Positions 24,462 to 45,081 of a stretch of DNA of 64,000 nucleotides are shown piece by piece. Position 1 is the stretch's first letter; every line of letters starts with the position of its first letter. This DNA is from an uncultured Planctomycetaceae bacterium (GTDB taxonomy: Bacteria; Planctomycetota; Planctomycetia; Planctomycetales; Planctomycetaceae), in assembly GCA_913031625.1 (NCBI GenBank), contig CAJWGB010000001.1, positions 52,533-116,532 of the forward strand, in the 5' to 3' direction. The position numbers were made by a program, and so were the translations under genes. The notes beneath the pieces are model-generated. The model was not told the origin of the DNA, made no database searches, and was given only the letters and a program-made list of their open reading frames with translations.

Positions 24462-26015
24462 CTATTTGGATTCAGCAGCCGCACTGGCAAGGTGCCGGCC
24501 GGCAAGGCGACCACTCGTCATCGCCCATGCGATATGTAGCCCGTGTCCCCAAAGGATCTGGCCTCCGAGGCCCGTCTGCCCGACTGCATAGAGACCCCTG
24601 ATTGCTTCGCCATTCTCGTCAAGGACTTCGAACCGCTGACTAATGGCGGCTCCTCCCTCAGTTGTTGTGAACCATGAGCGAACGGGCCCCATGAGCACCC
24701 AGTCTTCTGATTGCTCAGGGAAGGCGTCTGCAGCTGACCGTTCCAGTGCTGAAGCCGGGATCCCATGAACTGAGGCCACACGTCTGAGAGACCCCTTTAC
24801 CGTTACATCAGGCCGCAGTCGCAGGTAGTCATGGACGTAGGCATAGGCGATTCTGGGGGCGGTTGAGACGAAGCACGGCCACGCGGAGTATTTCCGGATC
24901 AGCTGTTCATTCAGGAGCAGAAAGGCGTCGCCGGCAGGCTGTGCTGCCACTTTCAACTCTCGCTCGGGTGTTTGCCGCTCGTCACAGAATCGCAATCCCT
25001 CACGATTCACAAGAATCGCTCCATCGTCAAACAGGCTGTCTTCGGGGTGCTGCCACGTCACCAGCAATCGTTTTGTCATGGCACGCACCAAACCGTCTGG
25101 CACCAGCGGCAGCAGCCACCTTGACAGTCGATTCATCAACGAGCCTGCCGGAAGTCGTGTCAGCAGGGACCCCCGTTTAGAAACCACAAATCGGAGCTCC
25201 GGTCCGTATGTTATCCCCATGTTCGTAAGGCTGCCGCCTGCGGCTTCCACCATTCGATGACCATCTCCTCTGGCGTGTGGGTTAATGCCCTGCACGTGCG
25301 AGTATTCTGTGCCTTTGAAACGAGCGATCAGGTCAGGGGCTGAGGCGTAGTCGCCGGCCGCGAGCACCACGCCGCGAACGGCGGATACTTCGTGCAGTGT
25401 TCCGTTGTAGTGAACTCGAACACCGATGACTCTTTGATCCGCATCCTGAATCAGCGACTGGACATCTGCGTTTTCACGCAGCGTTCCACCGAACCGGGTC
25501 AGCTGGGAGCAAAGTGTTGCGATGTATGCTTCCGCACGCGGTACGACGTTGTGCATTCGGGGAACCCGGTTGGGCGGTTCCGGGACAGGCCCGTGAAACG
25601 TCAGGCCCATGCCCATCAGCCATTGCAGCGTTTCGGCCGCATGCTCCAGAAAGAACTCCCGCAGCTCATGATTGTTGTGAGCTTCAATCTCCTGTGGCGC
25701 AAACCGCCCCGCGTCAATCGCATGGTCAGTGACACTGTCGTTGATATCGGCGCTGGCCTGGAGACTCGTTCCAGCGGCGGTAAACGACCCGACAGCGATT
25801 CCGGTTGTGCCTCCGGACCGGGCCTGCTTTTCCAGTACGAGAACCCGTGCTCCATTTTGAGCCGCGCTCACCGCTGCCGCCAGGCCGCTGCCTCCTGCTC
25901 CGACAACGATGATGTCGAACTCTGTGTCCAACCCGATTTGCCCCACATGCACGGCGCCTGATGTGTTTTCAGCCTCGGCTCTGGCCGTTTGTTGCGAACT
26001 ATTTGTCCGCCGCAC
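24462..26015 (-). CDS. FAD-dependent oxidoreductase (FAD_binding_2; fumarate reductase flavoprotein/3-ketosteroid dehydrogenase-like)
   Basis: DIIVVGAGGSGLAAA...VLEK..GGTT, VVLAAG, GDGHRM, TTEGG and GLYAVG. The start codon is uncertain. Confidence 0.85.
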   Translation of the reverse strand: MRRTNSSQQTARAEAENTSGAVHVGQIGLDTEFDIIVVGAGGSGLAAAVSAAQNGARVLVLEKQARSGGTTGIAVGSFTAAGTSLQASADINDSVTDHAIDAGRFAPQEIEAHNNHELREFFLEHAAETLQWLMGMGLTFHGPVPEPPNRVPRMHNVVPRAEAYIATLCSQLTRFGGTLRENADVQSLIQDADQRVIGVRVHYNGTLHEVSAVRGVVLAAGDYASAPDLIARFKGTEYSHVQGINPHARGDGHRMVEAAGGSLTNMGITYGPELRFVVSKRGSLLTRLPAGSLMNRLSRWLLPLVPDGLVRAMTKRLLVTWQHPEDSLFDDGAILVNREGLRFCDERQTPERELKVAAQPAGDAFLLLNEQLIRKYSAWPCFVSTAPRIAYAYVHDYLRLRPDVTVKGSLRRVASVHGIPASALERSAADAFPEQSEDWVLMGPVRSWFTTTEGGAAISQRFEVLDENGEAIRGLYAVGQTGLGGQILWGHGLHIAWAMTSGRLAGRHLASAAAESK

Positions 26016-27615
26016 CGCCCAGTGTCACCGTAATTTTATATTGGTTCTGCAGGTGAGTATGTGCCTGGCTGGCGTAGCGGTCTTTGGGGTAATTGCGGCA
26101 TACCTGCTGAAAGGTGCGGATTGCCGACTCTTTTTTGCCCGCCTTTTCGTAGGTGTAGCCAATCTGAAGCATTGCCCATGGCGCTGATTTGGGAGCCCCA
26201 CCAACAATCTGGTTGTATAGAATGACGGCTTCGTTGTATTCCTTCAATGCCCGATGGCAGGACGCCATCTCCTGATAGTTCGTCGGGAAGTTGTTGCACT
26301 GACGGTAGAAGCCGATTGCTTCCCTGTACTTACCCGCGTACCGATGGCAGGTGGCGATCTGCCACATCCATTTCTCTGTATTCTCCGGGTCGCTCTTCAA
26401 CAGTTCGGTATAGACGGCAATTGCTTCCGGATACTTCTTTGCGTCGACCCATGTGCCTGCGATCTGAGCTGTCCACTGAGTGGGATTCTCCGTGTCGGCC
26501 GCCACGTTCTTCTGATAGGCAGCAACGGCAGCCTGATAATTCTGCTGCTGACGGTAACTCTGAGCCACCTGATTCTGGCCCTCAAGGCGGTCTTCGAACT
26601 TCTGAAACTGCTGACGTGCGGCGTCCCACCGATCTGTTGTCTTGTACCAGTTTCCGAGTCGCAGCAGAGTTTCATCGGACGCACCAAACTTCTTCAGGAT
26701 GTCGTCATAAATCTCCCGGACCTTCTGCTCACGCCCGGATACCGCCTGCAGATCAACCATCGCGTAATACTGACTCCTTGCCAATTGCTTTTCCTGATCC
26801 GTGGTGCCGATCTCCGGCAGATGAGTCCGAATCCATGTGACTCCAGTGTCGATGACCTGCAGACCACGCTTCTGAGTTTTGTCGTCTTTCAGCAGACGCC
26901 CGGCGGCGCTCCCTGCGTAAGCACGAATCTGTTCCGGCATCTGCTCTTCCGCGTAGGTTGATTCAAGGGCATTAATACCGTCTTCGAATGAACCAAACTC
27001 GAAGGACCAGGTTGCCAGTTGCTGGGAAGCCTGCACACAGATATTTTTTGCTTCCTTGCTGCGCGTTGTCTCGAAGGTCAAACGCTTCCAGAGTTGAACG
27101 CGCGCCTTTTCATCCCTGCTGATCGTGGTCAGATCAATCAGATCGACTGTGGCATAAACAGCAGCCAGGTGTTTTGGATAGTCTTCAAGGACCAGTTGAT
27201 ACGCTTTCTTTGCTTTGCGTATTTCTCCAATATCCTTGTAAGCCTGCCCGATAAAGTAAGTTGCCGCAACCGCCTCGGGAGCATCCGGCCAGTAGTCAAC
27301 GACAGACTGAAAGCCCTCTTTGATCGCCGTGTTGTGTTTCTTCAATTGAACCTGACAGAGACTCCACTTGAGTTGCGAATATGCCGCCCCCTCACTTGTC
27401 TCGTACAACGTCAGGAACTTTTCATACTCAGCCGCTGCCACCTTGTAGTTCTTCTCTCGGTAGTACTTCTCCGCGATGTTCAACTGGTAACGCTCGACCT
27501 CTCGCAGTTTGGCCCAGCGGTCGAGGGATAGTTCGTCAAGCCGATCAGCCCCCGCTGGAGCGGCAGCAAACAGGCTAATCGCGAGAGCAGCAGGCAGTAC
27601 TTTGGCAACGTTCAT
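25999..27615 (-). CDS. Secreted tetratricopeptide repeat protein
   Basis: SD AAGGAAG before ATG 27615, signal peptide MNVAKVLPAALAISLFAAAPAGA, and many TPR helices (YKVAAAEYEKFLTLY, AMLQIGYTYEKAGKKESAIRTFQQV). Confidence 0.88.
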   Translation of the reverse strand: MNVAKVLPAALAISLFAAAPAGADRLDELSLDRWAKLREVERYQLNIAEKYYREKNYKVAAAEYEKFLTLYETSEGAAYSQLKWSLCQVQLKKHNTAIKEGFQSVVDYWPDAPEAVAATYFIGQAYKDIGEIRKAKKAYQLVLEDYPKHLAAVYATVDLIDLTTISRDEKARVQLWKRLTFETTRSKEAKNICVQASQQLATWSFEFGSFEDGINALESTYAEEQMPEQIRAYAGSAAGRLLKDDKTQKRGLQVIDTGVTWIRTHLPEIGTTDQEKQLARSQYYAMVDLQAVSGREQKVREIYDDILKKFGASDETLLRLGNWYKTTDRWDAARQQFQKFEDRLEGQNQVAQSYRQQQNYQAAVAAYQKNVAADTENPTQWTAQIAGTWVDAKKYPEAIAVYTELLKSDPENTEKWMWQIATCHRYAGKYREAIGFYRQCNNFPTNYQEMASCHRALKEYNEAVILYNQIVGGAPKSAPWAMLQIGYTYEKAGKKESAIRTFQQVCRNYPKDRYASQAHTHLQNQYKITVTLGGAADK

Positions 27616-27617
27616 GA

Positions 27618-28958
27618 TCACTTCCTTTTCTGTCGTGATTCCAGCCATTTGCTGTATTCTGCGTGTGCATAAAAGATCACGTTGGTGCCCAGCTGATAAC
27701 AGGCTTCGTAAATCTCCGGAGCAACACCTGAATGGTCATCGGTCCATGCATCCCCGATGTCACCGGGGTGATAGTAGCAGACGAGTCGTCCGTCCACGCG
27801 CCACCCCAGTGCGTCTTTGCCTCCGTGAGGAGCAACGTAGGGAAGGAACGGTATCTGGAACGGGACGCGGTGAATCTGATCGTCGAGAGGTACACGGCTT
27901 GGCCGAACGTTCGGCAACACGCGTCTCATCATGCCGACAAACTGATTATGAAAGCCGGCGCTGCCGCCGTTGTCACCAAAAATCATACCATGCTTGTCGA
28001 GCAGATACTCCCGCAGAATCCTGACCTCATTGTCGGACAGTGAGATGCTCTTCTGCCCAGTCAGGTAAACCATGGGAGGACTCTTCTCAATTGGGAAGTT
28101 CTTCAGCTGCGCGATTGTTCGCGACTCCGTGCGTTTGGCGACCTTCTGCTGTGTTCGAACCCCGTACTCGATCAGCATGTTGACATCTGCACCGATTCCG
28201 AAGTCCTGGTCCCAGTCACCGCCGGCGTACTCAAGACGAATAAATCGCACCATTCCGGAATTCGTGCCGCCCGCAAATCCGGCCCCTTTGCCTTCGCCGT
28301 AGCCCACTTTGTAGGCATGCTCAGTGATCTCCATCAGCTGCAGCTTCACCTCATCGATGGGTGGGACTTTGAAACTGATGGGACTGAACGAACTGACAAT
28401 GAACTTCTTGCGAATAATCTTCTGAACGCGGACGGTCTGAGCAATCGTCATCTGCTGTCCACCGCCCGCCGGCATCTCATAGGCCTCACTGCAGCCGCCA
28501 ATCCTCGTCAGCAGCAGGAAGAGCAGGAAAAACGTTGCGGTGTACGTGGACAGCATGGCAACCGACTGATTGAGCCGCTGATTCTTTCGACCGTAGTACC
28601 ATGCGCGTGGGTCGAGCGGATGGCTGCCTGGAATGGCTTCATTCTTCGGCTTCGGTCGCCAGACGGGTCGGTCGGGCAGGCCCGCTACCCAGCGGCGCTG
28701 AAAGAAGTGGGCCCCCTTCTCGAGCACCCAGATAACCCAGAGCAGACCTATGATAAAAGCGCCCGAGGTTCCCAGGCGAGCCGCCCATGTCCGCATGACG
28801 GGCCAGTCCACCCAGCCGAAGAGAAACTGACAGACCTGCCAGACGACGAGGAATCCGACTGACAGTGACAGACAAAGACGCACGCCCGGACGTCTCAACT
28901 GGGCCCGGACTTCCTGGCGGCCGTCGGAGACAGTCTGGTTGTGGGCGATCTCGGTCAT
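27618..28958 (-). CDS. Membrane-anchored DUF4159 domain protein
   Basis: Three N-terminal hydrophobic segments, then C-terminal DUF4159-like FIRLEYAGGDWDQD, PMVYLTGQ, YLLDKHGMIFGD and QLGTNVIFYA. Confidence 0.75.
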   Translation of the reverse strand: MTEIAHNQTVSDGRQEVRAQLRRPGVRLCLSLSVGFLVVWQVCQFLFGWVDWPVMRTWAARLGTSGAFIIGLLWVIWVLEKGAHFFQRRWVAGLPDRPVWRPKPKNEAIPGSHPLDPRAWYYGRKNQRLNQSVAMLSTYTATFFLLFLLLTRIGGCSEAYEMPAGGGQQMTIAQTVRVQKIIRKKFIVSSFSPISFKVPPIDEVKLQLMEITEHAYKVGYGEGKGAGFAGGTNSGMVRFIRLEYAGGDWDQDFGIGADVNMLIEYGVRTQQKVAKRTESRTIAQLKNFPIEKSPPMVYLTGQKSISLSDNEVRILREYLLDKHGMIFGDNGGSAGFHNQFVGMMRRVLPNVRPSRVPLDDQIHRVPFQIPFLPYVAPHGGKDALGWRVDGRLVCYYHPGDIGDAWTDDHSGVAPEIYEACYQLGTNVIFYAHAEYSKWLESRQKRK

Positions 28959-29060
28959 CAGTCCTGCCTGGCGCGTCTTTTTACGCCCCTTTCACTATCG
29001 TCCATTTGCCGGCCTGCCTGATGCCGGCCTGTTGTTGATCCACCGTCTGGCGTTACGTCG

Positions 29061-29546
29061 CTATTCGATTCCGTCCAGAAGATTATCCAGTTTGTTGTCC
29101 AGGGGGTTCCTGTCCGGAGGTGCCGTTTCTGTCTTATCAATGCCCATCGCAGCCGCAGCTCGTTCTACGTCTGGTTTGTTCGTATCAGAATCTGACGCAC
29201 TCTGATCGGCCGCAACAGCAGGTTGTTGGTCATTCTGGTTCTCTTCTGTGGGCTGATCATTCTGAGCAGTCTGCTCTGCCTGCTGTTCATCGGCCAATGC
29301 CCAGGGGCCGATCGTGAAGGCACAGAGCAGAATCAGTGTTCCAGCCGTTGCGATTGAAATGCCCCGCACAAGACTGCTCTGTGCGACGATCCCCATCACC
29401 TCCTGTGGACTCCGGCCCTTGAGCCGGCCGAGGAACTCGCGCAGTTCTCCAACAGATGCGGTCGTGTTCTCCCGCAGCGACTGGTAATCCTGCATCGCCC
29501 CGGCGGAGGGCTGCTGACTTTCGAAATGGTCTTTGGAACTATCCAT
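29061..29546 (-). CDS. Single-pass membrane hypothetical protein with Gln/Asp-rich linker
   Basis: SD GAGGA before ATG 29546, TM GISIATAGTLILLCAFTIGPW, low-complexity EQQAEQTAQNDQ linker, and C-terminal NPLDNKLDNLLDGIE. Confidence 0.75.
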   Translation of the reverse strand: MDSSKDHFESQQPSAGAMQDYQSLRENTTASVGELREFLGRLKGRSPQEVMGIVAQSSLVRGISIATAGTLILLCAFTIGPWALADEQQAEQTAQNDQPTEENQNDQQPAVAADQSASDSDTNKPDVERAAAAMGIDKTETAPPDRNPLDNKLDNLLDGIE

Positions 29547-29556
29547 TTGTCCGTCC

Positions 29557-29964
29557 TCAGTTCTTTTCTTCTTCCACGATATGAACCAGTTTGCCACCGG
29601 CTTCACTAACTGCCTCAATGACCGGCTCAAATCGCTGAGCCAGAGTCTCCTGATGAACTTTCAACAACACCGTTCGTTCATCCTCCGAAGGGTTCTCCGG
29701 AATCAAATCTTCGATCAGATTCGAAAGCTCCGAGATCCCAACCTGCTGTCCATTGAGATACAGCTTGCTGTCTTTATCAATCAGGACGCTGATCACAGAG
29801 TGTCCAGCTGTCTGCAGGTTCTCTACTCGGGAGGGCGTCCACTGCAGGTGGCTATCGTCATTTGCGCGGGCCAGAATAACGAAGAAGATGAGCAGGTTAA
29901 ACGCAATATCCCCCATCGCCATGCTGGGCACCTGAGCTCTGGTTTTGCGTCTGAGTGTTTTCAT
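29557..29964 (-). CDS. exbD: ExbD/TolR family biopolymer transport protein
   Basis: TM segment MGDIAFNLLIFFVI with the conserved Asp, then periplasmic ISVLIDKDSKLYLNG and VIEAVSEAGG. Confidence 0.85.
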   Translation of the reverse strand: MKTLRRKTRAQVPSMAMGDIAFNLLIFFVILARANDDSHLQWTPSRVENLQTAGHSVISVLIDKDSKLYLNGQQVGISELSNLIEDLIPENPSEDERTVLLKVHQETLAQRFEPVIEAVSEAGGKLVHIVEEEKN

Positions 29965-30015
29965 GATTCTCGATTGTCACGGGCTCGCGGAATGTCCTGC
30001 GAAATCCACGACTGT

Positions 30016-30444
30016 CTAGGGGACCTGTACTTCTCGTTCTTCTTCCAGCTGGAGTGTCACCACCCCCCCGGCATCCTCGATGACCGACGTGATGTGGATC
30101 CAGTGATGATAGGGAGTGTCCTTGTCGCTCTTGACGACGACAATTCTGTCTTCCGGTTTGCTGCGACCTGACAACAGTGACTTCAATCGCTTTGGCAACT
30201 GTGACCACTGTGACTCGGGCAGAGCTTCACCGTTCAACAGTACGGCTGTCCGCTTCATCGCCACTTCAATGTTGTCCTGCTGTTGATTTTCTTCCACAGT
30301 CTCCGCACTGGGCAGCGTTTGAGGCCGACCGGAGTCCGGCTGAATGGAAGCACAGACCAGGAAGAAAACGATCAGATTGAATGCGATGTCGCCCGTTGCA
30401 TGCGAAGGAGGCTCAACGAGAACTCGCGTTCGGCGTCCCCGCAT
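30016..30444 (-). CDS. exbD: ExbD/TolR family biopolymer transport protein
   Basis: TM segment TGDIAFNLIVFFLV with the conserved Asp, then VVVKSDKDTPY and VIEDAGG. Confidence 0.85.
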   Translation of the reverse strand: MRGRRTRVLVEPPSHATGDIAFNLIVFFLVCASIQPDSGRPQTLPSAETVEENQQQDNIEVAMKRTAVLLNGEALPESQWSQLPKRLKSLLSGRSKPEDRIVVVKSDKDTPYHHWIHITSVIEDAGGVVTLQLEEEREVQVP

Positions 30445-30446
30445 AG

Positions 30447-31358
30447 TCAGGCTCCCGCCTCAGCGTCCATGGGACCACTTTCCAGAGCCGTCTGAATCGT
30501 GACGCCCTCCACCAGTTCAGTCGCACTTTCTTCCACGTCCAGTACAAAGCGATCGATGATGCTCGTAAAATAGTTAAACGCCATGAAGGCCGGGATCCCA
30601 ATGATCAGGCCGAATGCTGTTGTCAGCAGAGATACTTTGATACCGCCCGCGGCCAGCTTGACGATGTTTTCATTACCGAAGTTGGTGTCGATGTTATCGA
30701 ACGAGACAATCATCCCGGCGACCGTTCCAAGGAACCCAAGCATTGGTGCCACACTGGCAATCGTTGCCAGAATCGGCAGATGGCGTTCAAGGGCCGCCAC
30801 AACATGGACGTTGTAGTCGTCCATCGCTTTGACCACCTGTTCACGAATGCGATCGACATCGTAATTCAGTCGTCGGAGCACAAAGAATTTTCGCAGGCCG
30901 GAGCTGAGGATCGCCGGTACGGGGCCTTCTTCCCGATCACACAGCTGCAGTGCATCTTCAACTTTGTCCTGGATCAGCAGGTCATGAACCTCCTGGCGGA
31001 TCTGAGAACTGTCGGTCGCGACCATCTTCAGGCTGCGATACCGTTCGATAATCACGCCTGCGCCAACTATTCCGAGAATCAAAATGGGCCACATGAAGAT
31101 TCCGCCTTCGATCAGCAGGCCAAGTGCGCCGGAATGCAGGATCTCATCAAGGACACCACCTCCGAGCGACTCGTCTTCGGCAGCAGGAGGTGGCGACTCT
31201 GGCTCAGTCTCTGAGTTTTCACCCTGGTCGTTCTGCTCGGCCCCGTCGTTGTTCTCCGACTGCTCCGGGCTCGGTTCATTGGAATCCGATGTTTCGTCCT
31301 GAGCAATGACGGGTAACGCCAGGACCAGTAAGAGAGGAATAAGTAACAACGTCTTCAT
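30447..31358 (-). CDS. exbB: MotA/TolQ/ExbB proton channel family protein
   Basis: LATIASVAPMLGFLGTVAGMIVSF and GIKVSLLTTAFGLIIGIP, preceded by a signal-like start and acidic extension. Confidence 0.92.
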   Translation of the reverse strand: MKTLLLIPLLLVLALPVIAQDETSDSNEPSPEQSENNDGAEQNDQGENSETEPESPPPAAEDESLGGGVLDEILHSGALGLLIEGGIFMWPILILGIVGAGVIIERYRSLKMVATDSSQIRQEVHDLLIQDKVEDALQLCDREEGPVPAILSSGLRKFFVLRRLNYDVDRIREQVVKAMDDYNVHVVAALERHLPILATIASVAPMLGFLGTVAGMIVSFDNIDTNFGNENIVKLAAGGIKVSLLTTAFGLIIGIPAFMAFNYFTSIIDRFVLDVEESATELVEGVTIQTALESGPMDAEAGA

Positions 31359-31416
31359 ATGATTGCGATCTATCGTAACCTGCGGACCTCTGGTGGCCGG
31401 GTCAATTCATGAGTGT

Positions 31417-37400: not shown

Positions 37401-39147
37401 TCTTTACGAGTCGGCTATACCACGTCGCAGCTGTCCCTCGCTGGTCGCCCTTCGCGTAGTGCTGGTGGTAATAGCCATGGTCCCACAGCACGTACCGTTG
37501 AAGGTCCTTCGGCATTGAATTGAACAGGCGGGGCTCCAGGAGTTGTGTTCGAATCTGAGCGTCTCGCGCGTCGTATGGGCCGCGTTTGATCTGCTGCACC
37601 AGAGAAACGACCGGATCTTTGTCATCCTGCTGCAGTCGAGCCTGAACCAGATCAGCGCGCGCCTTCAGGTCCTTGTTGCGACGAGCATTCTTGGCCCAGT
37701 TCCCGGGGTACTGCCGGAAGTTCGACCAATGGATGTGATTCCGTCGTGCAGTGGCGATCAGATTCAGGTCATTCCGGAATTCTCCATCTGACTCCGCGCC
37801 ACTCAGCAGGAATGAAATCGCGTTCCATGCGTAACCGTCGTTGGTCGGAGACTTCTGCAGAAACTCGCGCGCCATCTGCTTCGCTTTCGCATTATCTTTC
37901 ATGCGGTCGCGATACACGGAGAACGCCAGCTGATACCGCAGAACCCAAACGGCTTTCGGATTCTTTGCAATGGCTTCCCGCAGTGCCTTTTCTGTGTCCT
38001 GCAGCTGGGCAGGTTCCGAGCCATTCAGCTGAATGAACAGTGAGGCTGTGTTGTGGGCTTCCGGCGCAGCGGACAGCAGTGTTCGAAACAGCTGGAGTGC
38101 CCGCGCCTGATTCTTGTCGCGATTCCATGCAACGGCCAGCAGAGCAACTCGCTCGTAACGGTCATCGCGGTTCTTGTAGCGATTCAGATACTCCTTCACG
38201 ACCGGTTCGAGCTGACCTGCAGGAAGGGCTGCATCATACATTCGCTGAATCTGGTAGTAGTGTGCCGACTGGTCGTCCCGGATCTTCCGCGCCTGCTTCA
38301 GCATCTCAGCGGCGTTTGAGTGTTGCCCCGTGTAGCCATAGTTGTCCGCCATGGTGCGAAGCACTTCGCGTTTTTCTTCAGCATCCCGCAGCAGACCGGA
38401 TCGCAGCAGTTTGTTGCCGACCGTATTGGCTTCTGCCCACTTGCTGATTCGTCGCCATTGAGCATACGCCCTCAGACCCGCACGTTTGGCATAGTCATCC
38501 TTCGGGAGTCGGTCGAACATTTCCTCAGCCAGCGTGGCTTCCAGCGCGATGCCATCGTTGCCACTCTGTGAATACAGACGGCAGGCATGCTCGGCAAACT
38601 TTCGTCCCTGCGGATTGGCCTGACGCTGCCAGCGTGACTGATAAACCTCAGCGGCATCCTGATTTTCACCCAGCTTTTCGAGAATTGCTGCCAGTCGTTC
38701 TTCGACAGAAGCTCCTTCTGCCGCTTTGGAATACCGACTGAGAAACTGTCGGGCGATGACTGTGAATTCACGATTCCGTGAAAGTGCCTCCAGGCCATCC
38801 ATCAGCTGCAGCATCACTGTGGGGTGACGTGGATGAGACGGATGGGCGGAAACAAATCGCTGGCTCGATCGCACGAGGCCGAACACCAGGCCGTTGTCGT
38901 AATAAAGATTGGTGAGACGAATCAGGACATCACCGGCTTCCGGAGCCGTGTCTTTGTACTTCCCAAGTTCCGCCTCCAGGGCAGACGCCTGCTGAGAGAT
39001 CTCGTCAACGGTATCGGTGGAGTCTTCCTGCGCGACAGCAGGCAGTGTAAGACCGACAGTACATACGGCAACAGCAGCGGCACAGCGAAGAATCGACTGC
39101 GTTCGTGCAGCGCAGAATGCGGTCGAGGAGAATTGGAAGTGCTTCAT
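31417..39147 (-). CDS. Giant (2576 aa) secreted TPR protein with repeated Ig-like modules and discoidin (F5/8)-like, PA14-like and CBM6/35-like domains
   Basis: Sec-like signal ending PAVAQE, long helical/TPR N-half, five 'D.D...ET...SG.F.G...GD.I...Y.D'-type modules, and a C-terminal TPR run. The start overlaps the upstream stop (TAATG). Confidence 0.88.
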   Translation of the reverse strand: MKHFQFSSTAFCAARTQSILRCAAAVAVCTVGLTLPAVAQEDSTDTVDEISQQASALEAELGKYKDTAPEAGDVLIRLTNLYYDNGLVFGLVRSSQRFVSAHPSHPRHPTVMLQLMDGLEALSRNREFTVIARQFLSRYSKAAEGASVEERLAAILEKLGENQDAAEVYQSRWQRQANPQGRKFAEHACRLYSQSGNDGIALEATLAEEMFDRLPKDDYAKRAGLRAYAQWRRISKWAEANTVGNKLLRSGLLRDAEEKREVLRTMADNYGYTGQHSNAAEMLKQARKIRDDQSAHYYQIQRMYDAALPAGQLEPVVKEYLNRYKNRDDRYERVALLAVAWNRDKNQARALQLFRTLLSAAPEAHNTASLFIQLNGSEPAQLQDTEKALREAIAKNPKAVWVLRYQLAFSVYRDRMKDNAKAKQMAREFLQKSPTNDGYAWNAISFLLSGAESDGEFRNDLNLIATARRNHIHWSNFRQYPGNWAKNARRNKDLKARADLVQARLQQDDKDPVVSLVQQIKRGPYDARDAQIRTQLLEPRLFNSMPKDLQRYVLWDHGYYHQHYAKGDQRGTAATWYSRLVKMYPENFEYRYRYLQAASDYSPPEVAKEAALTMMSVDPPTNNQDVWRRLLSVADRNEDADLVRRAVAYIRKSHQLHGKEYQGMTGVGNLFEKLKQHDEAVAIWKETSEQKQNLTEARDSASQLFQQLEDPARRAAFAQKFFAGSTPNHGRYAMWLADSQLRAGNLDQFEKTLRESRKRADDRPFETWDADPTSLSNMLYSFRTSNEAYRAKPEEENTPADIARVATVIRDMQVDWPSAQGELMLLEELEGQKPMERALAWQRVTRKVAPDSHRWDQLVPFAQRAITREDYSIAATLLTGMLENISAATESRKEQGRAMIGQCYTRLGTVGLTIDESSPIAPLLRAALYLRLGDENLALETWLANKDLFDQHRLEVPVDLLIFVCDNLMAAGGDENHNKVEDTLRTWIIKNSESESIQDATKAEIQFLLAKNFYSAKRFDVARSEYTTVMNRYSESPFAVEAEFGIGETYMAQKVYDQAETVFEKLANSRDPEIIVRAEFLRGVLSHRRGDNDEARKIFRNVLERVPSIDLANKALFSLSEVYGDEERYMDQLQLLMTVGRLGRVSKRQHAPGLPLSIVVQDSDLGISRGHNRVPVIVRTEPGNDEELIYLSSGGAGKGVFRADVDTLLGPVAKGDGILQLTGNDVIRCDYPEKFKSEFKSVPLSDVEIRIAADAEFKIASSLIIDEKEETFSERLEREAREREQASQRQADRRPSNQIKPGNPIYLRVKDADRDLGDERDTIVAKLVADSGDQVQVSLTETDPHSGIFEGTAKSGELPAGALASDTAIDHSPLMAIDKDPNSYWQSEPDGATPKSLTVDMKDLRSISRAKFSVPEELENRPVRAALQASYDGEFWYRVAGHPAVPEALPVAEDYGQMSYRLYDSNTTSYTTWQQVLSLAAGEPMESGAVEDGHLEWVRPEDKEDAPRYVTMIWYGKFVQPRPGAVRFSIQGYRTAIAINGQLERSVIQGNQTVDVWLEQGVHDLTFFASAHPNTNRLAVSRARSDLNQQRIALSPFLSSDFDLTQPAAQIELDEAAAAAPAVTLQLADVELQKKTEQFGVTEQGEMQVLGSWQDLEDRATWTSNVPAGVYDVWFNWSHGGGGGSGFTLSVGESTLEGTVTNTGSWQKFQEDRVGTVIVDSDGELQIGIQPDEIVGGGLMGLAGVELRPAQGSRTVVTEDAWEFRFEPVNVRYTRFLIEEYLGEAVAVSHVEISGDDIEKPYIPTEADVLALSQNDVLEIAGGDIVNATYTDEVTQANSGGSRLLTDRLQATYFDAQVSPIAYTFVRGGNGAVNNVRKRLKRVDPGERLIVEIVDYDRDQTSSPDQVLFEVSVNDGEPIQFAATETEEYSGIFTKEVDTSAKVEEGKLTVKRGDRIYLRYYDEQNTFPGHSVPREDVVYVNEPTDAKVQFLESRAIPVSEGRNGPVRVTYHERPEEADVSSVAFEAPLTVEVIDPDAAKDSLSEVVVSVTTSDGATADVRCVISGAFSDVPNSGASDWALEEGRFIGQVVLQLGSKTSPEIVPVTPDMPRGLIGGGVMEDEEEGVMLDDSLVTRVLNVTGRDEILASYLDEVRTDDKPQPVDDAGRLISNGVLACTDRDYDKPITQLHVGEKLYLVVTDADQDSSDERDSVDLIVTTEFGEKETVTLVETLVHSGVFTGSFALKSSEEPTAGNLQPGEPEIECYFGDTLHVAYVDSAASSESGTLELSEDIPVVIGTDGLVAAFSKTFNNEKLAVETRFHIAESYFELFKSHRELGRSEEERVDLDAGRRILREVMEDYPDPKYVPRVSYLLGQFAQELASYPEAIDSYEMIVRQFPDHPLAADAQYKLAQSYEESGDFDEALEAYVTLAATYPRSPLIASVMIRICDHFYKAEEYDIAAQVGEKFLERFEGHQHAARIAFRIGQCSYKAEEFKDAGLAFDRFSKLFPEDDLAADALFWSGESYRMAKDDREAFRRYNRCRWDFPESESARYSRGRLALPEMLQQFEAEARSVEDQ

Positions 39148-41423
39148 TATCCACCTGCCTGCGAAAGGGCTTCGGAGATTTTTTTGGCGTCGCTGGCGAG
39201 GCTGCTTTCCGGGTAGTCGGCGATCAGCTGATCGAACCGAACCCTGGCTTCCGTTTTGCGCCCCATGCGATAAAGGCAGCGACCATAATTGAACAGAATG
39301 ACGTCCAGAAAGCGGGCGTCCGGGTAACTGGACAGAACCGTCTCAAAGGTATCCACGGCTCGTGAATAGTCCTTCTGGCGATAGTAGTAGTTGGCCATCT
39401 GGGCGACGGCTTCACCGACGCGGCCGCTATCCGGGAACTGATCGAAAACCTTCTTGTATTCCTGAAAAGCGCGGTCGTGGAGCTGAGTCGCGCGAGCTCC
39501 CTCAGTGCCATCCGCCATGGCTGTGTAACACTCGGCAATGCCGAACTGAGCTTCACCGCGCAGCTGACTGGACTCCATTCTCACCAGACGGGAAAACACG
39601 CCGATCGCGCGATTGAGGTCTCCCTGCCTGCGAGCCACCTCCGCCAGCTGCAGCAGTGCATCATCGACGAAGCCACTATTGGGGAAGTCACGCTGAAGAC
39701 GCTGAGCCATTGCGGCGGCCAGTTCGAGGCGGTCCATCTCGAAATAAATGCGCCACAGCTGCACGTAGGTTTCTTCCAGCAGGCGACCACCCAGCTGTTG
39801 CGCTTCAGACATGATCTCCTCACACAGCACCAGAGCCTGGTCGTACTTCACGTCTGCGTTGTCTTTGAGCCCAAACTCCTTGTAGCGATTCCCGATGTTT
39901 GTCAGGGCGTCTGCCGTCTTGAGTCGCGTGCGCACGCGGAGTTCTCGGTCAGAGATTCGCGAACGCGTGACACGAACACCGCCCAGATTTCCTTCGATGC
40001 AGCGAGCATCCACCTGAGTGACCTTCGGGGCATCTGTTGTGTTGAGACTGTCTTCGTAAACCAGGCGAACGAAGTCGCCCGGCAGAGCCTGCAGCGTATC
40101 GTCATCAGAAATCGTCTCTTCGCTGCGAATCAGCTGCACAGTCGCTCGAAACACGCCCGTATGAACGGCGTCATCGCCCACCACGATTTCGGGAGTGTCC
40201 TCTTCCGGAGCCGATTCGTCCTTCGACTTATTGAAATTCTCCAGCTGTTGTTGAATCTGAGCTTCAACCAGTCGAATCTCAACGCGATCCACAACGCGGT
40301 AACGTTCGATCTCGGGAAGATCTTCAGATTCTGCATCTTCTGCCTGAGCCAGAGCGATCGCTTCGGCTTCCAGCTCTTCGTCCGTTTTTGCCCGATGGAC
40401 TTCGACGAATGCTGAGATCTGATCCGCCTTGTCTGTGACATCACGATCCGCGTCGGCTGTCTGAATGTTAATCGCTTTGCCAAGGACGACTCCCTGTAGC
40501 GTTTCGCTGAAGGCTCCATCCATAATTGATGTGACTGCGTCGCCAACAACACTGACTTCATGTTTCACTTCACGGTTGAATTGCTTGTCGGCTGTGTGTT
40601 CGTCGACATAGGTCACGCTGACGGAATCATCACCGCGAATTTCGAGAGTGCCGTTGCCAGGCACAGGGCGCCCCAGTCGAGTCGCCACACTTCCAAGAAC
40701 GATTCGTACGTTGCGGCCCACGGGAAAACACTCTACCAGCTCGATGTCTCCGCTGGCCGCCTCGCAGCGAATTTTGACATGGCGACCGGACTCCAGAGCG
40801 GCGAGGTCTGCGTCTTCGATTTTGACGAACAGTCGCTTGCCCGCTTCGACTTTTCTAATTTGACTGTCTTCGGAAGACAGGGCAGTGCCCACCTTTTCCA
40901 GGGCAGCGATTGCCCGGCTGTAGTGCCCCAGCTGAAAGTGCCCGAGACCGATGTAGTAGTACGCCTGATTGACGTGTTCACTCACCGGGAACTTCTCGAT
41001 GACATCCCGCATCACCTGAAAGCATTTTCCGAAGTTGCGGGCTTCGTAGAAGCACATGCCCATTTTCAGAGTGGCCTCGGCTCGCTGATCTTCATCTCGG
41101 TTTTCTTCCGAAGCGACGGACTCGTAGTGCACACGAGCCTTCTCAAAGGAACGATCTCGCTCAAGGAAGTAGTTCCCCAGCCGCATATGCGCAAGGAATC
41201 GAACCCGGCTGCGCGGATAACGTTCGATAACTGACTCCCAGACTTCCACCGCCTTGGCGGTTTCTTCTGCCTCCAGTCGAGCATCACCGGCTTCGACCAG
41301 CTTGCGCGCGGCTCGGTCTTCAATCAGTGAGCCGCGAGGAGGTGGAGATCGAGGAGTCTCCTGAGCGGAGAGGGGACACAGGACCAGCAACGCCGGAATG
41401 GCGAGGAGTGTGGTGAGTCGCAT
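39147..41423 (-). CDS. Secreted TPR protein (758 aa) with two Ig-like modules
   Basis: Signal MRLTTLLAIPALLVLCPLSAQE, N- and C-terminal TPR runs, and central VKIEDADL...GDDSVSVTYVD and IQTADADRD...GDFVRLVYED modules. Confidence 0.88.
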   Translation of the reverse strand: MRLTTLLAIPALLVLCPLSAQETPRSPPPRGSLIEDRAARKLVEAGDARLEAEETAKAVEVWESVIERYPRSRVRFLAHMRLGNYFLERDRSFEKARVHYESVASEENRDEDQRAEATLKMGMCFYEARNFGKCFQVMRDVIEKFPVSEHVNQAYYYIGLGHFQLGHYSRAIAALEKVGTALSSEDSQIRKVEAGKRLFVKIEDADLAALESGRHVKIRCEAASGDIELVECFPVGRNVRIVLGSVATRLGRPVPGNGTLEIRGDDSVSVTYVDEHTADKQFNREVKHEVSVVGDAVTSIMDGAFSETLQGVVLGKAINIQTADADRDVTDKADQISAFVEVHRAKTDEELEAEAIALAQAEDAESEDLPEIERYRVVDRVEIRLVEAQIQQQLENFNKSKDESAPEEDTPEIVVGDDAVHTGVFRATVQLIRSEETISDDDTLQALPGDFVRLVYEDSLNTTDAPKVTQVDARCIEGNLGGVRVTRSRISDRELRVRTRLKTADALTNIGNRYKEFGLKDNADVKYDQALVLCEEIMSEAQQLGGRLLEETYVQLWRIYFEMDRLELAAAMAQRLQRDFPNSGFVDDALLQLAEVARRQGDLNRAIGVFSRLVRMESSQLRGEAQFGIAECYTAMADGTEGARATQLHDRAFQEYKKVFDQFPDSGRVGEAVAQMANYYYRQKDYSRAVDTFETVLSSYPDARFLDVILFNYGRCLYRMGRKTEARVRFDQLIADYPESSLASDAKKISEALSQAGG

Positions 41424-41449
41424 GGAAGTGAGCAGTTCAGGAAGGAAGA

Positions 41450-41479
41450 CGAACGGGACCGTCTAAGCCGGTCCGTTCG
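41450..41479 (-). terminator. Possible weak terminator/processing hairpin between DUF1501 and the TPR genes
   Basis: CGAACGGGACCG / CGGTCCGTTCG stem with one bulge, followed by pyrimidine-rich TCTTCCTTCC on the minus strand. Confidence 0.35.
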
Positions 41480-41597
41480 CAGTTGGTTTTCCAGGCATCC
41501 CGCCTGTGAATACTGCCTGAAGTTTCAGGCAGCTGCCCCTCCTTCCCTGAGTGTGCTCATTCGAACCACGCGGGGCATCTGTGTAACAATACGGGAA

Positions 41598-42857
41598 TCA
41601 GGCGAACAGCTCGGACACAACCTCACCGCCATCAACCAGTTTCATTGGTCGGGCCAGACGTGTGATTACTTCCTTTTCCGGGTCGATTCCCAAAGCGTGA
41701 CAGAAGGTCGCGTGCAGGTCGGCGACCTGAACAGGACGCTGGTCTGGCTGCTCGCCGTTTTCATCAGAAGAGCCAATGACCTGCCCTGCCGCAGTTCCCC
41801 CGCCGGCAACAAAGCAACTGAAGACGGCCGGATAGTGGTCACGACCGGCATTCATGTTGATACGCGGCGTACGACCAAACTCACTGAGCATAATGACCAG
41901 TGTCTTTTCCAGTTTGCCGGACTCAGCAAGGTCTTCAATCAGTGATGCCAGCGCCGGGTCCATGACTTCGCCATGGTTCCTCATCGCGGGGAAGTTCTGG
42001 CTGTGTGTGTCGAAGCCGCCACGATTGACCTGGACGAATCGAACACCGGTTTCCACAAGCTGTTTCGCGACAAGGGCACCACGACCAAACGCCGTGTCAC
42101 CGTATCGGTTCAGCGTGGCCGTCGGGACTTTGTCCAGTTCGAATGCCTGCAAAGCAGGGCTTCGCATCAGCCGAACAGCATCGTTGATGGATGTCTGTGT
42201 CGCTTTGAGCGCTTCGTTGCGATTGCCGGTTGCAAACCGTTTGTTGAAGCGAGCCAGTCGATCAAGGCGAGCATTGCCGCGTTCCTGAGTGATTCCTTCC
42301 GGGAAGGACAGGTAGGGATCTTTGTCGCCGGGGCCACCGACGAAATAGGCTTCGCATGACTGACCAAGGTAGCCGGCTCGAGGAGCACGTCCGGAGATGG
42401 AAACATAAGCCGGCAGGTCACCCATCTTTTCCTTTTCATGAGTGACGATCGATCCAAATCCAGGGTGAATCAGATTCCCGGACTGGTTGTAGCTCGTCTG
42501 CAGGTTATAGGTTGCGCGGCCATGAGCTCCCTGAGTTCCGGCAATGGAACGAATCAGTGAGCAGTGGTGCATCTGCTTTGCGAGGTTCGGAAAGATCTCG
42601 GACAGCTGGATGCCGGGGACGGAAGTCTCAATGGCTTCGAACTCTCCCTGAGTGGGACGCCCGGGTTTGGGGTCCCAGGTATCGATATGCGACATACCGC
42701 CACCATTCCAGAACAGAATGACGTGTTCTGCTTTGGGAGCGTGAGAGGTGCCTTCCATCGCCAGCAACTGACGCAGAGGAAACCCGAGGAAAGTTGCTCC
42801 GGCAGCCATTCCGCCGATCATTGCCCGTCGGCTCATTTGGTGTTCAAGGCCAGACAT
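41598..42857 (-). CDS. DUF1501 domain protein (Tat-like leader)
   Basis: MSRRAMIGG, ILFWNGGGMSHIDTWDPKP, GVRFVQV, GGFDTH and SEFGRTPRIN...GRDH. Confidence 0.93.
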   Translation of the reverse strand: MSGLEHQMSRRAMIGGMAAGATFLGFPLRQLLAMEGTSHAPKAEHVILFWNGGGMSHIDTWDPKPGRPTQGEFEAIETSVPGIQLSEIFPNLAKQMHHCSLIRSIAGTQGAHGRATYNLQTSYNQSGNLIHPGFGSIVTHEKEKMGDLPAYVSISGRAPRAGYLGQSCEAYFVGGPGDKDPYLSFPEGITQERGNARLDRLARFNKRFATGNRNEALKATQTSINDAVRLMRSPALQAFELDKVPTATLNRYGDTAFGRGALVAKQLVETGVRFVQVNRGGFDTHSQNFPAMRNHGEVMDPALASLIEDLAESGKLEKTLVIMLSEFGRTPRINMNAGRDHYPAVFSCFVAGGGTAAGQVIGSSDENGEQPDQRPVQVADLHATFCHALGIDPEKEVITRLARPMKLVDGGEVVSELFA

Positions 42858-42924
42858 GTGTGACTCCTTGTAGTTCCGGTTGAGTGGTTGCGGCCGGTGA
42901 GGCCATGGTGGGTGTTAAAGTCGG

Positions 42925-45081
42925 TCAGGGAAGGAAACGAAATTCGTCGCAGTTCAGCAACAGCCATCGCAGGTCAGCCATGCCTTCCAGCTGGCTGTTT
43001 CCTTCATTCACAATCGTCAGTGCTTCTGCCTGTTCTTCGGCAGTGGGAAGTCGTGTCAGAATTTCCTGATAAGCCAGCTGAACAGCCGCCTGTGGATCGG
43101 CATTTTCGCCAATTAGCAGCTGGTGAACCGGTTCAAGACTGCCGACTCGCGAGGCTTCGTGCGTCAGTCGTCCGTTCAGCATCATCAGTGCCTGCCGCAT
43201 CGAGGGGCTGTTGTCACGATGCTCGCCCAGCTGCGTTCGGTCGGTTTGACCAAACACTCGCAGGAAATGCTCAGGCGCAGCGGGGGATGCCATGCGAAAC
43301 GATGAGGAGAACTTAGGGTTATCATCCACAGTCGTTTTCACGAATCGGTCGATGAACTCAACATTACGGCGTTCCTGGTCTTCCTGCTGCATTCGCATGG
43401 CTTCGAGTTCTTCGCGGGACATGACCTGCATCTTTTCGATGCTGACCGATTCCTGACCTGCTGACTGGGACTTCTTCAGAACAGAATCGAAGTCGAGTTC
43501 GATGGCAGACTCGAGGTTGTACGATGGACGGCCATCGGGTGTCTTCGCCTTCATCTCCATTTTGGGTTCGGAGTTGCCTGCTGCCAGACTGCGGTCTTCA
43601 ACAACGGCTTCCGCCTCTTCCATTTCTTTTGCGACACGTGACTGCTGCCACATGACTCGCAGGTTCTGGCCGGCTGCGTGTTTGACTTCAAACAGATGCC
43701 CGGCAGTCACGATGCTGTCGTAAATGACTTCACTCGGCATTCGCCTGGCGGCTGTGGCCGCAAACGCTTCTTCGAGTTCCGCCTGTGTGGCTTCATCGAC
43801 GCCACGAGCATGTGCTCTCTGGTAAGGCTCACTGGCGATAATTGTCCTGATCAGAGATTTCAGGTCGTACCCTGACGCGACGAACTCCTCAGCGAGAAAG
43901 TTCAGTGTCTTTGGATGCGTCGGAGGATTGCTCTCACTGAAGTCATCTACCGGTTCCACAATTCCTCGTCCAATGAGGTGTCCCCATACGCGGTTTACGA
44001 ATGCTCGGGAGAAGTAGGTATTCCTGGGGTCAGTGACGAGGTCTGCCAGTTCGCTGCGTAACTCACTTTCGGACGCCATGCCTGCATTGATCTTCAGTCG
44101 TCGAGCATCTCGCTTGGCCTCTGACGCCACATCGAATGAATTCTCTCTGCCGCCTCGTGCCGCCTTGTCGACCTTGTCGTCCAGAGCGGACAGAATGTCA
44201 TCAACGGATGGCCCTTTGGGTTGGCTGTCAGTGCTGCTGACGAGCGAGTCGCGAAGACGATCCAGTCGCTGGATGTATTCCGCGTCAGAAGACTTAGCGA
44301 GTGTAAACAGAAACTGTGGCTTCAACGGTTTTCGTTCTGCGTCGTCAGACATACCTTCCGGCGGCCACAGAACGGTCGACTGACTGGTGTCTGTTGTGTA
44401 GATCGTGTTGGTGAATCGAGTTTCCATACGACGGGTTTTGCCGAAGTAGGCTGCCAGGGAGTAGAAGTCCTTCTGAGTCCACTTGTCGAAAGGATGATCG
44501 TGGCACTGTGCGCACGCGACTCGGATTCCCATAAACACCTGAGCGGTTGCGCCGGCCAGAGCCATTGGGTCAGCATTATCACCGAGAATGAATCCGACTT
44601 CCGGAGTCGCCCCCGCCTTGCCGTTGGCAGAAATGAATCGATAGGCAAGCTGGTCGTATGGCGTGTTTTCTCTCACTGCCTTATGAACCCAGGCAATAGC
44701 AGCGGACCCTCCATCGGCGTTGGAACGCAGCCGCAGCATGTCGGCGTAGAAGACGGTCCATGTGTCTGCAAACCGTTCTGACTCGAGCAGCTTCTCGACA
44801 ATCTCAGCCCGCCGGGTTGTCGCATCCAGCTTTTCGAATGCGCGGATTTCGTCCAGTGTGGGAATTCGACCGATCAGATCGACGTAGACGCGACGCAGAA
44901 AGGCATGGTCATCAGCAATTGGTGCCGGCTGCTGGCTGAATCCGTTCTCCGCGTTTTCGCTTTTCAGAACGGACGAGAGCTGCTTCGCAGTTTCTTCGCC
45001 GGGCGAAGTCGGAATGACCGTAACCAGAACCGCCATCAGGGACAAAAACGAGGCAGTACGACGAATGAAGGGTCTGACCAT
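42925..45081 (-). CDS. DUF1549/DUF1553 domain protein
   Basis: FLRRVYVDLIGRIPT, CAQCHDHPFDKWTQKDFYSLAAYF, VNRVWGHLIGRGIVEPVDDF, QALMMLNG and ILTRLPT. Confidence 0.92.
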   Translation of the reverse strand: MVRPFIRRTASFLSLMAVLVTVIPTSPGEETAKQLSSVLKSENAENGFSQQPAPIADDHAFLRRVYVDLIGRIPTLDEIRAFEKLDATTRRAEIVEKLLESERFADTWTVFYADMLRLRSNADGGSAAIAWVHKAVRENTPYDQLAYRFISANGKAGATPEVGFILGDNADPMALAGATAQVFMGIRVACAQCHDHPFDKWTQKDFYSLAAYFGKTRRMETRFTNTIYTTDTSQSTVLWPPEGMSDDAERKPLKPQFLFTLAKSSDAEYIQRLDRLRDSLVSSTDSQPKGPSVDDILSALDDKVDKAARGGRENSFDVASEAKRDARRLKINAGMASESELRSELADLVTDPRNTYFSRAFVNRVWGHLIGRGIVEPVDDFSESNPPTHPKTLNFLAEEFVASGYDLKSLIRTIIASEPYQRAHARGVDEATQAELEEAFAATAARRMPSEVIYDSIVTAGHLFEVKHAAGQNLRVMWQQSRVAKEMEEAEAVVEDRSLAAGNSEPKMEMKAKTPDGRPSYNLESAIELDFDSVLKKSQSAGQESVSIEKMQVMSREELEAMRMQQEDQERRNVEFIDRFVKTTVDDNPKFSSSFRMASPAAPEHFLRVFGQTDRTQLGEHRDNSPSMRQALMMLNGRLTHEASRVGSLEPVHQLLIGENADPQAAVQLAYQEILTRLPTAEEQAEALTIVNEGNSQLEGMADLRWLLLNCDEFRFLP

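Follow-up and report, generated by a model that had tools for sequence, protein, structure and literature searches.

The 64-kb window analysed here, i.e. the whole stretch of 64,000 nucleotides of planctomycete DNA, carries on its minus strand, between positions 25999 and 45081, ten consecutive co-oriented open reading frames (ORFs), which encode an ExbB/TolQ-like channel subunit, two ExbD/TolR-like subunits, three secreted tetratricopeptide repeat (TPR) proteins, two membrane proteins and a DUF1549/1553-DUF1501 pair. Sequence comparisons give good support to the view that the cluster encodes a conserved envelope machine, driven by the proton-motive force (PMF) and devoid of linked TonB, TonB-dependent receptor (TBDT) or Tol-Pal partners. 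The fuller reading, in which the ten genes make up one Tol-like PMF-driven envelope system of Planctomycetota with the mechanism proposed below, is given an even chance of being correct as a whole. That the genes form one functional system is supported chiefly by the persistence of every module despite permutation, splits and deep divergence; diverged versions are found in at least one Verrucomicrobiota genome. The components are the following, with sizes in amino acids (aa).

42925..45081, minus strand: DUF1549/DUF1553 (PSCyt2+PSD1) protein, 718 aa; Pfam E 2e-40 and 6e-50
41598..42857, minus strand: DUF1501 protein, 419 aa; Pfam E 2.6e-102
39147..41423, minus strand: secreted TPR protein (TPR758), 758 aa; TPR families, signal peptide, TIGR02795
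31417..39147, minus strand: giant secreted TPR protein, 2576 aa; Pfam/NCBIfam, TIGR02795
30447..31358, minus strand: ExbB/TolQ-like channel subunit (ExbB), 303 aa; PF01618, E 3.5e-26
30016..30444, minus strand: ExbD/TolR-like subunit 1 (ExbD1), 142 aa; PF02472, E 1e-14
29557..29964, minus strand: ExbD/TolR-like subunit 2 (ExbD2), 135 aa; PF02472, E 4.8e-15
29061..29546, minus strand: small single-pass protein, 161 aa; no Pfam family
27618..28958, minus strand: polytopic DUF4159 membrane protein, 446 aa; PF13709, E 1.8e-29
25999..27648, minus strand: last secreted TPR protein (TPR549), 549 aa, shortened to 538 aa if translation starts at ATG 27615; TPR families

The original prediction, made from the sequence alone, had listed these ten co-oriented genes, and all the ORFs were found, on the minus strand, where it had placed them; the domains that it had named are returned by Pfam (PSCyt2+PSD1, DUF1501, TPR in three proteins, MotA_ExbB, ExbD in two, DUF4159). 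The tight junctions that it had quoted (39147, 30445, 27616, 29547) are likewise all present. A TAATG stop/start overlap at 39147 links TPR758 to the giant gene, ExbB and ExbD1 are separated by 2 bp (30445-30446), and 10 bp (29547-29556) lie between ExbD2 and the small gene, when the start of the latter is set at the ATG at 29546. The DUF4159 gene and the last TPR gene meet in TGA-tc-ATG, with a 2-bp gap at 27616-27617, if the TPR start is 27615. The remaining intergenic gaps of the cluster measure 51-174 bp. Promoter and terminator scans returned sites no commoner than in shuffled sequence, and do not define operon boundaries. The DUF1549/1553 protein has a signal/anchor at its N-terminus and the DUF1501 protein a Tat-like 'SRRAMIGG', read directly from the sequence; cleavable-looking signal peptides, with ends A↓Q(E/D) or A↓D, are carried by the three TPR proteins, the last of them after Met12, and by ExbB.

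The source metagenome-assembled genome (MAG) belongs to a marine Planctomycetaceae present in many seawater metagenomes, and, among the 80 best of 229 genomes in the collection, the nearest relative that bears a name is a Fuerstiella sp. MAG. Only three short metatranscriptome contigs were found on the cluster region, two on ExbB (31044-31194 and 31251-31401) and one over the small gene (29042-29192), indicating expression in situ. A contig of run X27 joins position 31914 to 40344 with 33 unmatched letters between; it was seen in one run only and is probably an assembly artefact between TPR-coding stretches.

Conservation was evaluated in a scan of species-representative genomes, 229 of which contain a relative of the DUF4159 protein. 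The best 80 loci, all from Planctomycetota (Planctomycetaceae, Pirellulaceae, SH-PL62-like genomes and one Phycisphaeraceae), were used for the counts; adjacency was scored by tblastn of the window proteins, and only loci with enough flanking sequence were counted. A core composed of the giant TPR protein, ExbB, ExbD1, ExbD2, the small protein, the DUF4159 protein and a TPR protein is syntenic in most of the 80 loci. The small gene, placed between ExbD2 and DUF4159, adjoins the latter in 64/67 loci, and adjacency to DUF4159 was found for ExbD2 in 62/64, ExbD1 in 58/60, ExbB in 49/56 and the giant gene in 42/51 loci. TPR549 follows DUF4159 in 61/75.

The head of the cluster (DUF1549/1553, DUF1501, TPR758) is present in 8/9 loci whose upstream side is visible, a permuted version included, the pair being missing from this place only in L084 (Anatilimnocola). 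DUF1549/1553 orthologues, 49-57% identical, head the cluster in L085, L086, L091, L092 and L093; the cluster-adjacent DUF1501 orthologues are 65-73% identical and always paired with a DUF1549/1553 gene. These identities indicate orthologues rather than random members of expanded families. In L084-L086 and L091-L093 the gene immediately upstream of the giant is an orthologue of TPR758 (60-69% identity), and a 28% identical relative is found in L087/L090.

Gene order may change while the parts are kept. The ten-gene order of the window is maintained in L092 and L093, whose giants are only 48-50% identical to that of the window. In L009/L022 a cyclic permutation is found (ExbD1-ExbD2-small-DUF4159-TPR549-DUF1549-DUF1501-TPR758-giant), recorded as keeping every gene, in which the DUF1549/1553 gene is placed after the last TPR gene. 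Clean breaks occur after ExbB in L085/L091 and after ExbD2 in L086; matching second halves, beginning at ExbD1 or DUF4159 behind a divergent gene, are seen in L013 and L026. Distant versions, in which identity drops to 27-28% for the giant and 34-39% for the DUF4159 protein, keep the same parts: L087/L090 encode the giant, two TPR proteins, ExbB, two ExbD, the small protein and a DUF4159 protein with an added N-terminal FHA domain, and L089 (Akkermansiaceae, Verrucomicrobiota) the giant, ExbB, two ExbD, the small protein and the DUF4159 protein. The neighbourhood survey thus bears out the co-conservation on which the prediction depended: the unit, including the DUF1549/1553-DUF1501 pair and the three TPR genes, is kept across rearrangements and in distant lineages. 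With synteny in dozens of species-level genomes, the gene neighbourhood is more than chance.

Some additional features were observed in the distant loci. The DUF4159 protein of L087/L090 carries N-terminal FHA and YscD-like domains (L087 20366-22600). In L090 a Tad pilus locus follows the cluster, and its ATPase and another protein carry FHA domains (L090 13000-22313), which hints at a Ser/Thr-kinase control shared by the two loci. Small mobile or selfish genes are inserted inside the cluster in L087 and L091, without breaking it: in L087 the TPR genes are separated from ExbB by a gene for a VapB-like antitoxin and a neighbouring small ORF (17893-18377), and in L091 a Uma2-family endonuclease gene separates a 788-aa TPR gene from the giant gene (7300-7965). 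A BrnT/BrnA pair is located upstream of the cluster in L087 (366-686).

In their alignments, the motor subunits keep the residues on which ion-driven function depends. ExbB consists of a signal peptide, an acidic periplasmic extension and three transmembrane (TM) helices, and scores 91.9 bits against PF01618 (cut-off 22.9). Its best NCBIfam model is TolQ (TIGR02796, 101.8 bits, below the cut-off of 221), against 68 bits for the ExbB model, and comparison with the PDB gives TolQ at E 2.6e-14 and ExbB at E 1.5e-9; judged by sequence, the channel subunit is nearer to TolQ than to ExbB. T212 (TM2) and T246, T247 and P256 (TM3) are invariant in 60-61 orthologues, the three threonines aligning to TolQ pore Thr positions. 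The two ExbD proteins score 55-56 bits against PF02472 (cut-off 25.4), and 28 and 17 bits against the tolR model TIGR02801 (cut-off 127); a PDB sequence search with ExbD1 gave no match. They form separate orthologous groups, with a cross-identity of about 30%. The TM aspartate that both had been claimed to retain, Asp19 in 'GDIAFNL', is invariant in all orthologues (65/65 for ExbD1, 71/71 for ExbD2). The motor would then be of the 5:2 type, with a heterodimeric ExbD pair.

Relatives of the DUF4159 protein number 919 in a large database; the best 120, spread across Planctomycetota, are 59-74% identical, a degree of sequence identity that is unusually high for a hypothetical membrane protein. 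The protein had been described as having a single TM helix; the sequence contains three, followed by a juxtamembrane segment (residues ~154-234) and the DUF4159 domain (238-446). The loop 81-132 has a net charge of +7, which by the positive-inside rule places it in the cytoplasm and the C-terminal two-thirds of the protein outside; the DUF4159 domain would therefore be periplasmic, and the invariance of C156 and C420 is taken to point the same way. S132, Y139 and F143 are invariant on one face of the last TM helix, and an invariant 'GGC' directly after this helix resembles a lipobox but is internal. Residues 154-234 are nearly invariant across families, yet are modelled by AlphaFold2 (AF2) with a predicted local distance difference test score (pLDDT) below 50 (30-40), as expected of a segment folding on a partner. 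In the library clustered at 50% identity, 200 clusters are matched at E<=1e-30; nearly all matches span the region from the last TM helix through the domain, and what precedes it ranges in length from zero to over 1,000 residues.

A search of the DUF4159 profile against PDB sequences gave no match. For the AF2 model of the protein, the best Foldseek match (E 3.6e-9) is 4i66, a crystal structure that itself belongs to DUF4159, and class I glutamine amidotransferases (GATases) rank next; the predicted fold is accordingly GATase1-like, and not that of vWA (von Willebrand factor A) domains. Membership of the vWA family was ruled out, as no vWA is found in the Foldseek top 50 and no VWA Pfam family is matched.

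The small protein matches no Pfam family. In an alignment of 65 sequences, a cytoplasmic helix with the conserved sequence 'ELREFLxxLKGRSPQEVLG' is followed by a single TM helix and then by a variable, acidic linker, some 60 residues long, in which Ala, Pro, Thr, Glu and Gln are abundant; a 35-aa peptide with the conserved acidic sequence 'AMGIxETKxADPxxNPLDxxLDxLLDG' forms the end. By its layout the protein is a candidate TolA/TonB-like connector, in which a peptide would stand in place of the globular C-domain. Some TPR domains bind C-terminal peptides, and by analogy this one may dock into the CpoB-like TPR modules described below. The sequence NPLD occurs in two conserved places, the loop ahead of the final TM helix of the DUF4159 protein (NPLDPxAWYYG, 28600-28615) and the C-terminus of the small protein (29070-29110), which may be a coincidence.

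The TPR proteins contain what appear, from model matches, to be CpoB/YbgF-like modules: TIGR02795 (tol_pal_ybgF, cut-off 90) gives 118 bits for the 758-aa protein, where the module is C-terminal, 134 bits for the giant and 83 bits for the 549-aa protein. The match concerns the module only, the proteins being far larger than CpoB. The giant has 113 homologues, most of them 2,400-2,660 aa long, cultured Anatilimnocola spp. among them, and is called 'TolA-binding protein' or 'YbgF' by JGI and NCBI annotators. It is composed of a signal peptide (1-40), a helical TPR-like solenoid (~40-1150), a beta-sandwich array of about 1,150 residues (~1150-2300) and a CpoB-like TPR module (2300-2576). The array was defined on an AF2 model of residues 1141-2320 (pLDDT 79, almost all beta), which Foldseek places with chains of immunoglobulin-like, macroglobulin and carbohydrate-binding module (CBM)-like sandwiches; matches include a Nitrosopumilus S-layer protein, bacterial alpha2-macroglobulin, PorU and CBM-like domains of RsgI. 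A motif 'VxDxDxD … ET…SGxFxG' is repeated in several of the beta domains. Carbohydrate-binding-type domains had been predicted for this scaffold: the beta-sandwich array is borne out by the model, while its carbohydrate-binding character is weakly indicated, the sole match to such a family, F5/8 type C, falling below threshold (23.8 bits, cut-off 28.2). Glycan binding by the giant is thus possible.

As had been predicted, no partner of the Ton or Tol-Pal type was found. TonB_C, TBDT, TolB and Pal are absent from the larger ORFs of the window, the scan having left out small and some mid-sized ORFs; no TBDT was found in the window or in the flanks of the related loci inspected, nor TolB or Pal in the cluster, the scanned ORFs or the same related loci, and no cluster protein matches a TolA/TonB C-domain family. 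Planctomycetes possess both an outer membrane and peptidoglycan. They lack pal and a tol-pal locus (PMC12204202 supplement).

The cluster shares several traits with Tol-Pal (TolQ-TolR-TolA-TolB-Pal-CpoB): among characterised proteins TolQ matches the channel subunit best, the TolR-like subunits have the TM aspartate, TPR modules of the CpoB/YbgF type are present, and a protein with one TM helix carries a long, flexible linker in the periplasm. It differs in having two TolR paralogues instead of one, in the absence of TolA domain III, TolB and Pal, in matches to the TolQ and TolR equivalog models far below cut-off, in the location of the CpoB-like modules within proteins of 538-2,576 aa, and in the DUF4159 and DUF1549/1501 components, which have no Tol counterpart. 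ExbB-ExbD1-ExbD2-TonB operons, known e.g. from Xanthomonas and Bacteroidota, have the same combination of one ExbB and two ExbD paralogues, with MotA_ExbB and ExbD Pfam domains; in contrast, no TonB C-domain protein or receptor was found in the cluster or among the larger ORFs of the window, and the channel is nearer to TolQ. In the Agl-Glt system of Myxococcus gliding, and its spore-coat paralogue Nfs, one TolQ-like and two TolR-like subunits are combined with large TPR proteins and with single-pass proteins formed by a cytoplasmic N-domain and a low-complexity periplasmic linker, and the motor is used for something other than import or Tol-Pal. The analogy with Agl-Glt proposed in the original prediction holds only for the set of one TolQ-like and two TolR-like subunits with TPR proteins; it does not extend to any Glt-specific component, as GltA/B/H/K barrels, GltF, GltI and AglZ-type proteins are missing, among the GltD/E/C TPR proteins and GltG/J only GltJ (16 bits, cut-off 450) and GltE (19.8 bits, cut-off 225) are matched, both below threshold, and DUF4159 is not part of Glt.

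The closest parallel in literature are loci of the Planctomycetes-Verrucomicrobia-Chlamydiae (PVC) group proposed in silico (PMC12204202, Mol Biol Evol 2025), arranged as TPR-tolQ-tolR-tolR-membrane-anchored vWA transducer, with Tichowtungia aerotolerans as type; the transducer has a vWA C-domain and a SHLS/His helix, and no phenotypes are known. The two have in common the lack of a TolA/TonB C-domain, the occurrence in the PVC group and a gene order in which a TPR gene precedes one TolQ-like gene, a heterologous pair of the TolR type and, last, two genes for proteins anchored in the membrane. By the published description, rather than by direct sequence comparison with the Tichowtungia locus, the cluster is set apart by its candidate transducers, a 161-aa connector without globular domain and a polytopic GATase1-like DUF4159 protein, with neither a vWA fold nor a SHLS/His motif, by three TPR proteins, among them the 2,576-aa giant with its beta-sandwich array, and by the DUF1549/1553-DUF1501 pair. 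The cluster had been called undescribed: this must be qualified in view of the related PVC loci, from which its candidate transducers differ; no experimental characterisation was found in the literature searched. Literature on DUF4159, on DUF1501+DUF1549+DUF1553, on planctomycete TolQ/TolR/ExbD and on crateriform+TonB likewise contained no characterisation of the cluster. In Rhodopirellula baltica, RB12055, a 319-aa member of the ExbB family, and the adjacent RB12053 (ExbD), which may be orthologues, are induced by salt stress in microarray data (PMC2754498); the length of 319 aa would fit the extended ExbB of the cluster family.

Taking together the parts list, the conservation as a unit and the intact motor residues, the following mechanism can be proposed. 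A TolQ-like pentamer would surround an ExbD1/ExbD2 heterodimer in the inner membrane, and proton flow via the invariant Asp/Thr site would drive a conformational or rotary cycle. Work would pass to the two inner-membrane partners encoded downstream, the small protein and the polytopic DUF4159 protein, and both would engage the three secreted proteins via their CpoB/YbgF-like TPR modules. The 2,576-residue giant would be long enough to span an enlarged periplasm, its array of about 1,150 residues contacting a polymer of the wall or of the outer layers. The DUF1549/1553 protein and the Tat-exported DUF1501 protein would be a conserved periplasmic accessory. The most likely role, held less firmly than the mechanism, would be to tie peptidoglycan and outer membrane to the energised inner membrane, in the service of envelope integrity and of remodelling during growth or budding, in bacteria without Tol-Pal. 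In a stronger form, regarded as rather unlikely, the system would be a PVC-specific functional replacement for Tol-Pal, in which a new transducer pair and a giant scaffold link inner membrane, wall and outer membrane, and which is needed for envelope integrity or for budding and division without FtsZ.

Several observations weigh against the Tol-like scheme. The envelope-integrity role is derived from the absence of Tol-Pal together with the CpoB-like modules, and is to this extent an argument from absence; no outer-membrane partner was identified for the cluster, and neither connector candidate has a TolA/TonB C-domain. The SHLS/His motif of TolA/TonB is lacking in the TM helix of the small protein (65-sequence alignment) as well as in the DUF4159 protein's last one. 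In ExbB the position equivalent to TolQ Glu173 is a valine, and V, E or Q among orthologues. A canonical lipobox is found in none of the three TPR proteins, which speaks against their being lipoproteins. The positive-inside rule is the basis for placing the DUF4159 domain in the periplasm, and for its FHA-fused relatives hydropathy gives an ambiguous 4 or 5 TM helices, the method being crude and its numbers inconsistent for some homologues. The invariant His, Asp and Cys of the domain would also fit an enzyme. Finally, no operon-wide transcript, or other sign of co-transcription, is found among the three short metatranscriptome contigs.

Alternative explanations differ mainly in what the motor is taken to drive. 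A Ton-like energiser of import, in which the small protein is a degenerate TonB that powers outer-membrane uptake, is considered unlikely; in one form, the process would be the 'selfish' uptake of high-molecular-weight polysaccharide by planctomycetes, the substrate being captured by the giant and the cargo processed by DUF1501, a member of the sulfatase-like superfamily. The combination of one ExbB and two ExbD is common in Ton systems of other phyla, and the topology of the small protein is TonB-like. CBM-like domains are among the Foldseek matches to the giant, and besides its own sub-threshold F5/8 type C match there are homologues with precomputed F5_F8_type_C and CBM-type matches; the mechanism of polysaccharide uptake in planctomycetes is moreover stated to be unknown (PMC6474216). 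However, the larger ORFs of the window encode neither a TonB C-domain nor a TBDT, the channel subunit is closer to TolQ, the carbohydrate-binding evidence lies below family thresholds, and in the relatives inspected the cluster is not beside carbohydrate-active enzyme or sulfatase loci. A surface machine of the Agl-Glt/Nfs type, whose motor would shift periplasmic and surface proteins along the envelope in gliding, adhesion or the laying down of a surface polymer or appendage, is judged quite improbable. In its favour are the likeness in subunits and large TPR proteins and, in NCBIfam, a faint resemblance to GltJ (E 0.005) and to GltE (E 3e-4); the latter matches are far below cut-offs and fall in low-complexity or TPR stretches, and neither the Glt outer-membrane barrels nor the cytoplasmic platform proteins are present. 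The Tad locus that follows the L090 cluster, with FHA in both the DUF4159 protein and the Tad ATPase, would fit such a machine, but this adjacency occurs in one locus only. Gliding is also the subject of speculation in PMC12204202 for the related vWA loci; against it, the cluster is found in planktonic marine Planctomycetaceae and in many lineages not known to glide.

It is also conceivable, at a distinctly low probability, that the DUF4159 protein is a motor-regulated enzyme or sensor: its domain would be a hydrolase or transferase that works on wall material in the periplasm, gated by the motor and with the TPR proteins as scaffold, instead of passively transmitting force. Its 59-74% identity, its invariant H, D and C clusters ('PFLPYVAPHGG', 'YYHPGDIGDAW.DDH') and the class I GATase relatives of its fold agree with this, and the FHA-fused versions suggest phospho-regulation. 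Against it, no catalytic motif of known GATase1, DJ-1 or ThuA families was identified, DUF4159 has no sequence-level match to any solved enzyme, and the only structural relative, 4i66, is without known function. A chance juxtaposition of independent operons (the DUF1549/1501 pair, the TPR genes and the ExbBD module) is disfavoured and very improbable. Gaps of 174 and 102 bp, a weak terminator-like hairpin between DUF1501 and TPR758, the split of the cluster in some genomes, the DUF1501 paralogue in the window (50286-51683) and the recurrence of DUF1501 genes near the cluster in related loci could be explained in this way; but the split points differ by lineage, all modules persist where contigs allow, and for every gene, orthologues of high identity are still linked after permutation and where the giant has diverged down to 27%. 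An anti-phage defence motor of the Zorya type was ruled out, no PADLOC match being found for nine cluster proteins.

The cluster bears on how planctomycetes without Tol-Pal hold their envelope together and remodel it in budding, as well as on their uptake of whole polysaccharides (PMC6474216). With phylum-wide conservation and an apparently functional ion-driven motor, it is a concrete candidate, testable in culturable planctomycetes. The range of Tol/Ton/Agl-type 5:2 motors would be broadened by a candidate output module which is not TolA/TonB-like in its C-domain. Three families of domains of unknown function (DUF4159, DUF1549/1553 and DUF1501) would be tied to a specific machine. One of its components, the DUF4159 protein (59-74% between families), is among the most conserved 'hypothetical' membrane proteins of this analysis. 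If the replacement of Tol-Pal were true, it would provide the first functional context for one DUF1549/1553-DUF1501 pair, members of families without a Pfam-assigned function, of which DUF1501 has two or more copies in the window.

Other genes of the window were also evaluated. Downstream of the cluster, an FAD_binding_2 oxidoreductase gene (24462-26015, minus strand, 517 aa from GTG) overlaps the last TPR gene by 17 bp; it does not lie beside the cluster in any relative inspected. On the other side, a gene for a VIT (vault inter-alpha-trypsin) protein of 1,042 aa (46425-49553, plus strand) is divergent from the cluster head; in L085, L086 and L091-L093 it is not kept at this place. It is followed by the DUF1501 paralogue mentioned above, a DUF3500 gene (52045-53037, minus strand) and a gene for a 1,656-aa protein with GDSL lipase, DUF7133, HEAT, PA14, cupredoxin and cytochrome c domains (53162-58132); the genes at 50286-58132 are typical planctomycete 'dark matter'. 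A 679-aa protein (21768-23807, minus strand) combines an N-terminal HTH_17 with long, acidic Ser/Asp-rich repeats and a C-terminal hydrophobic helix, a layout unusual for a DNA-binding protein. At the beginning of the window, a sulfatase gene (1155-3176, plus strand) is followed by tandem genes for BamB-like PQQ_2 beta-propellers (3540-4754 and 4751-6115).

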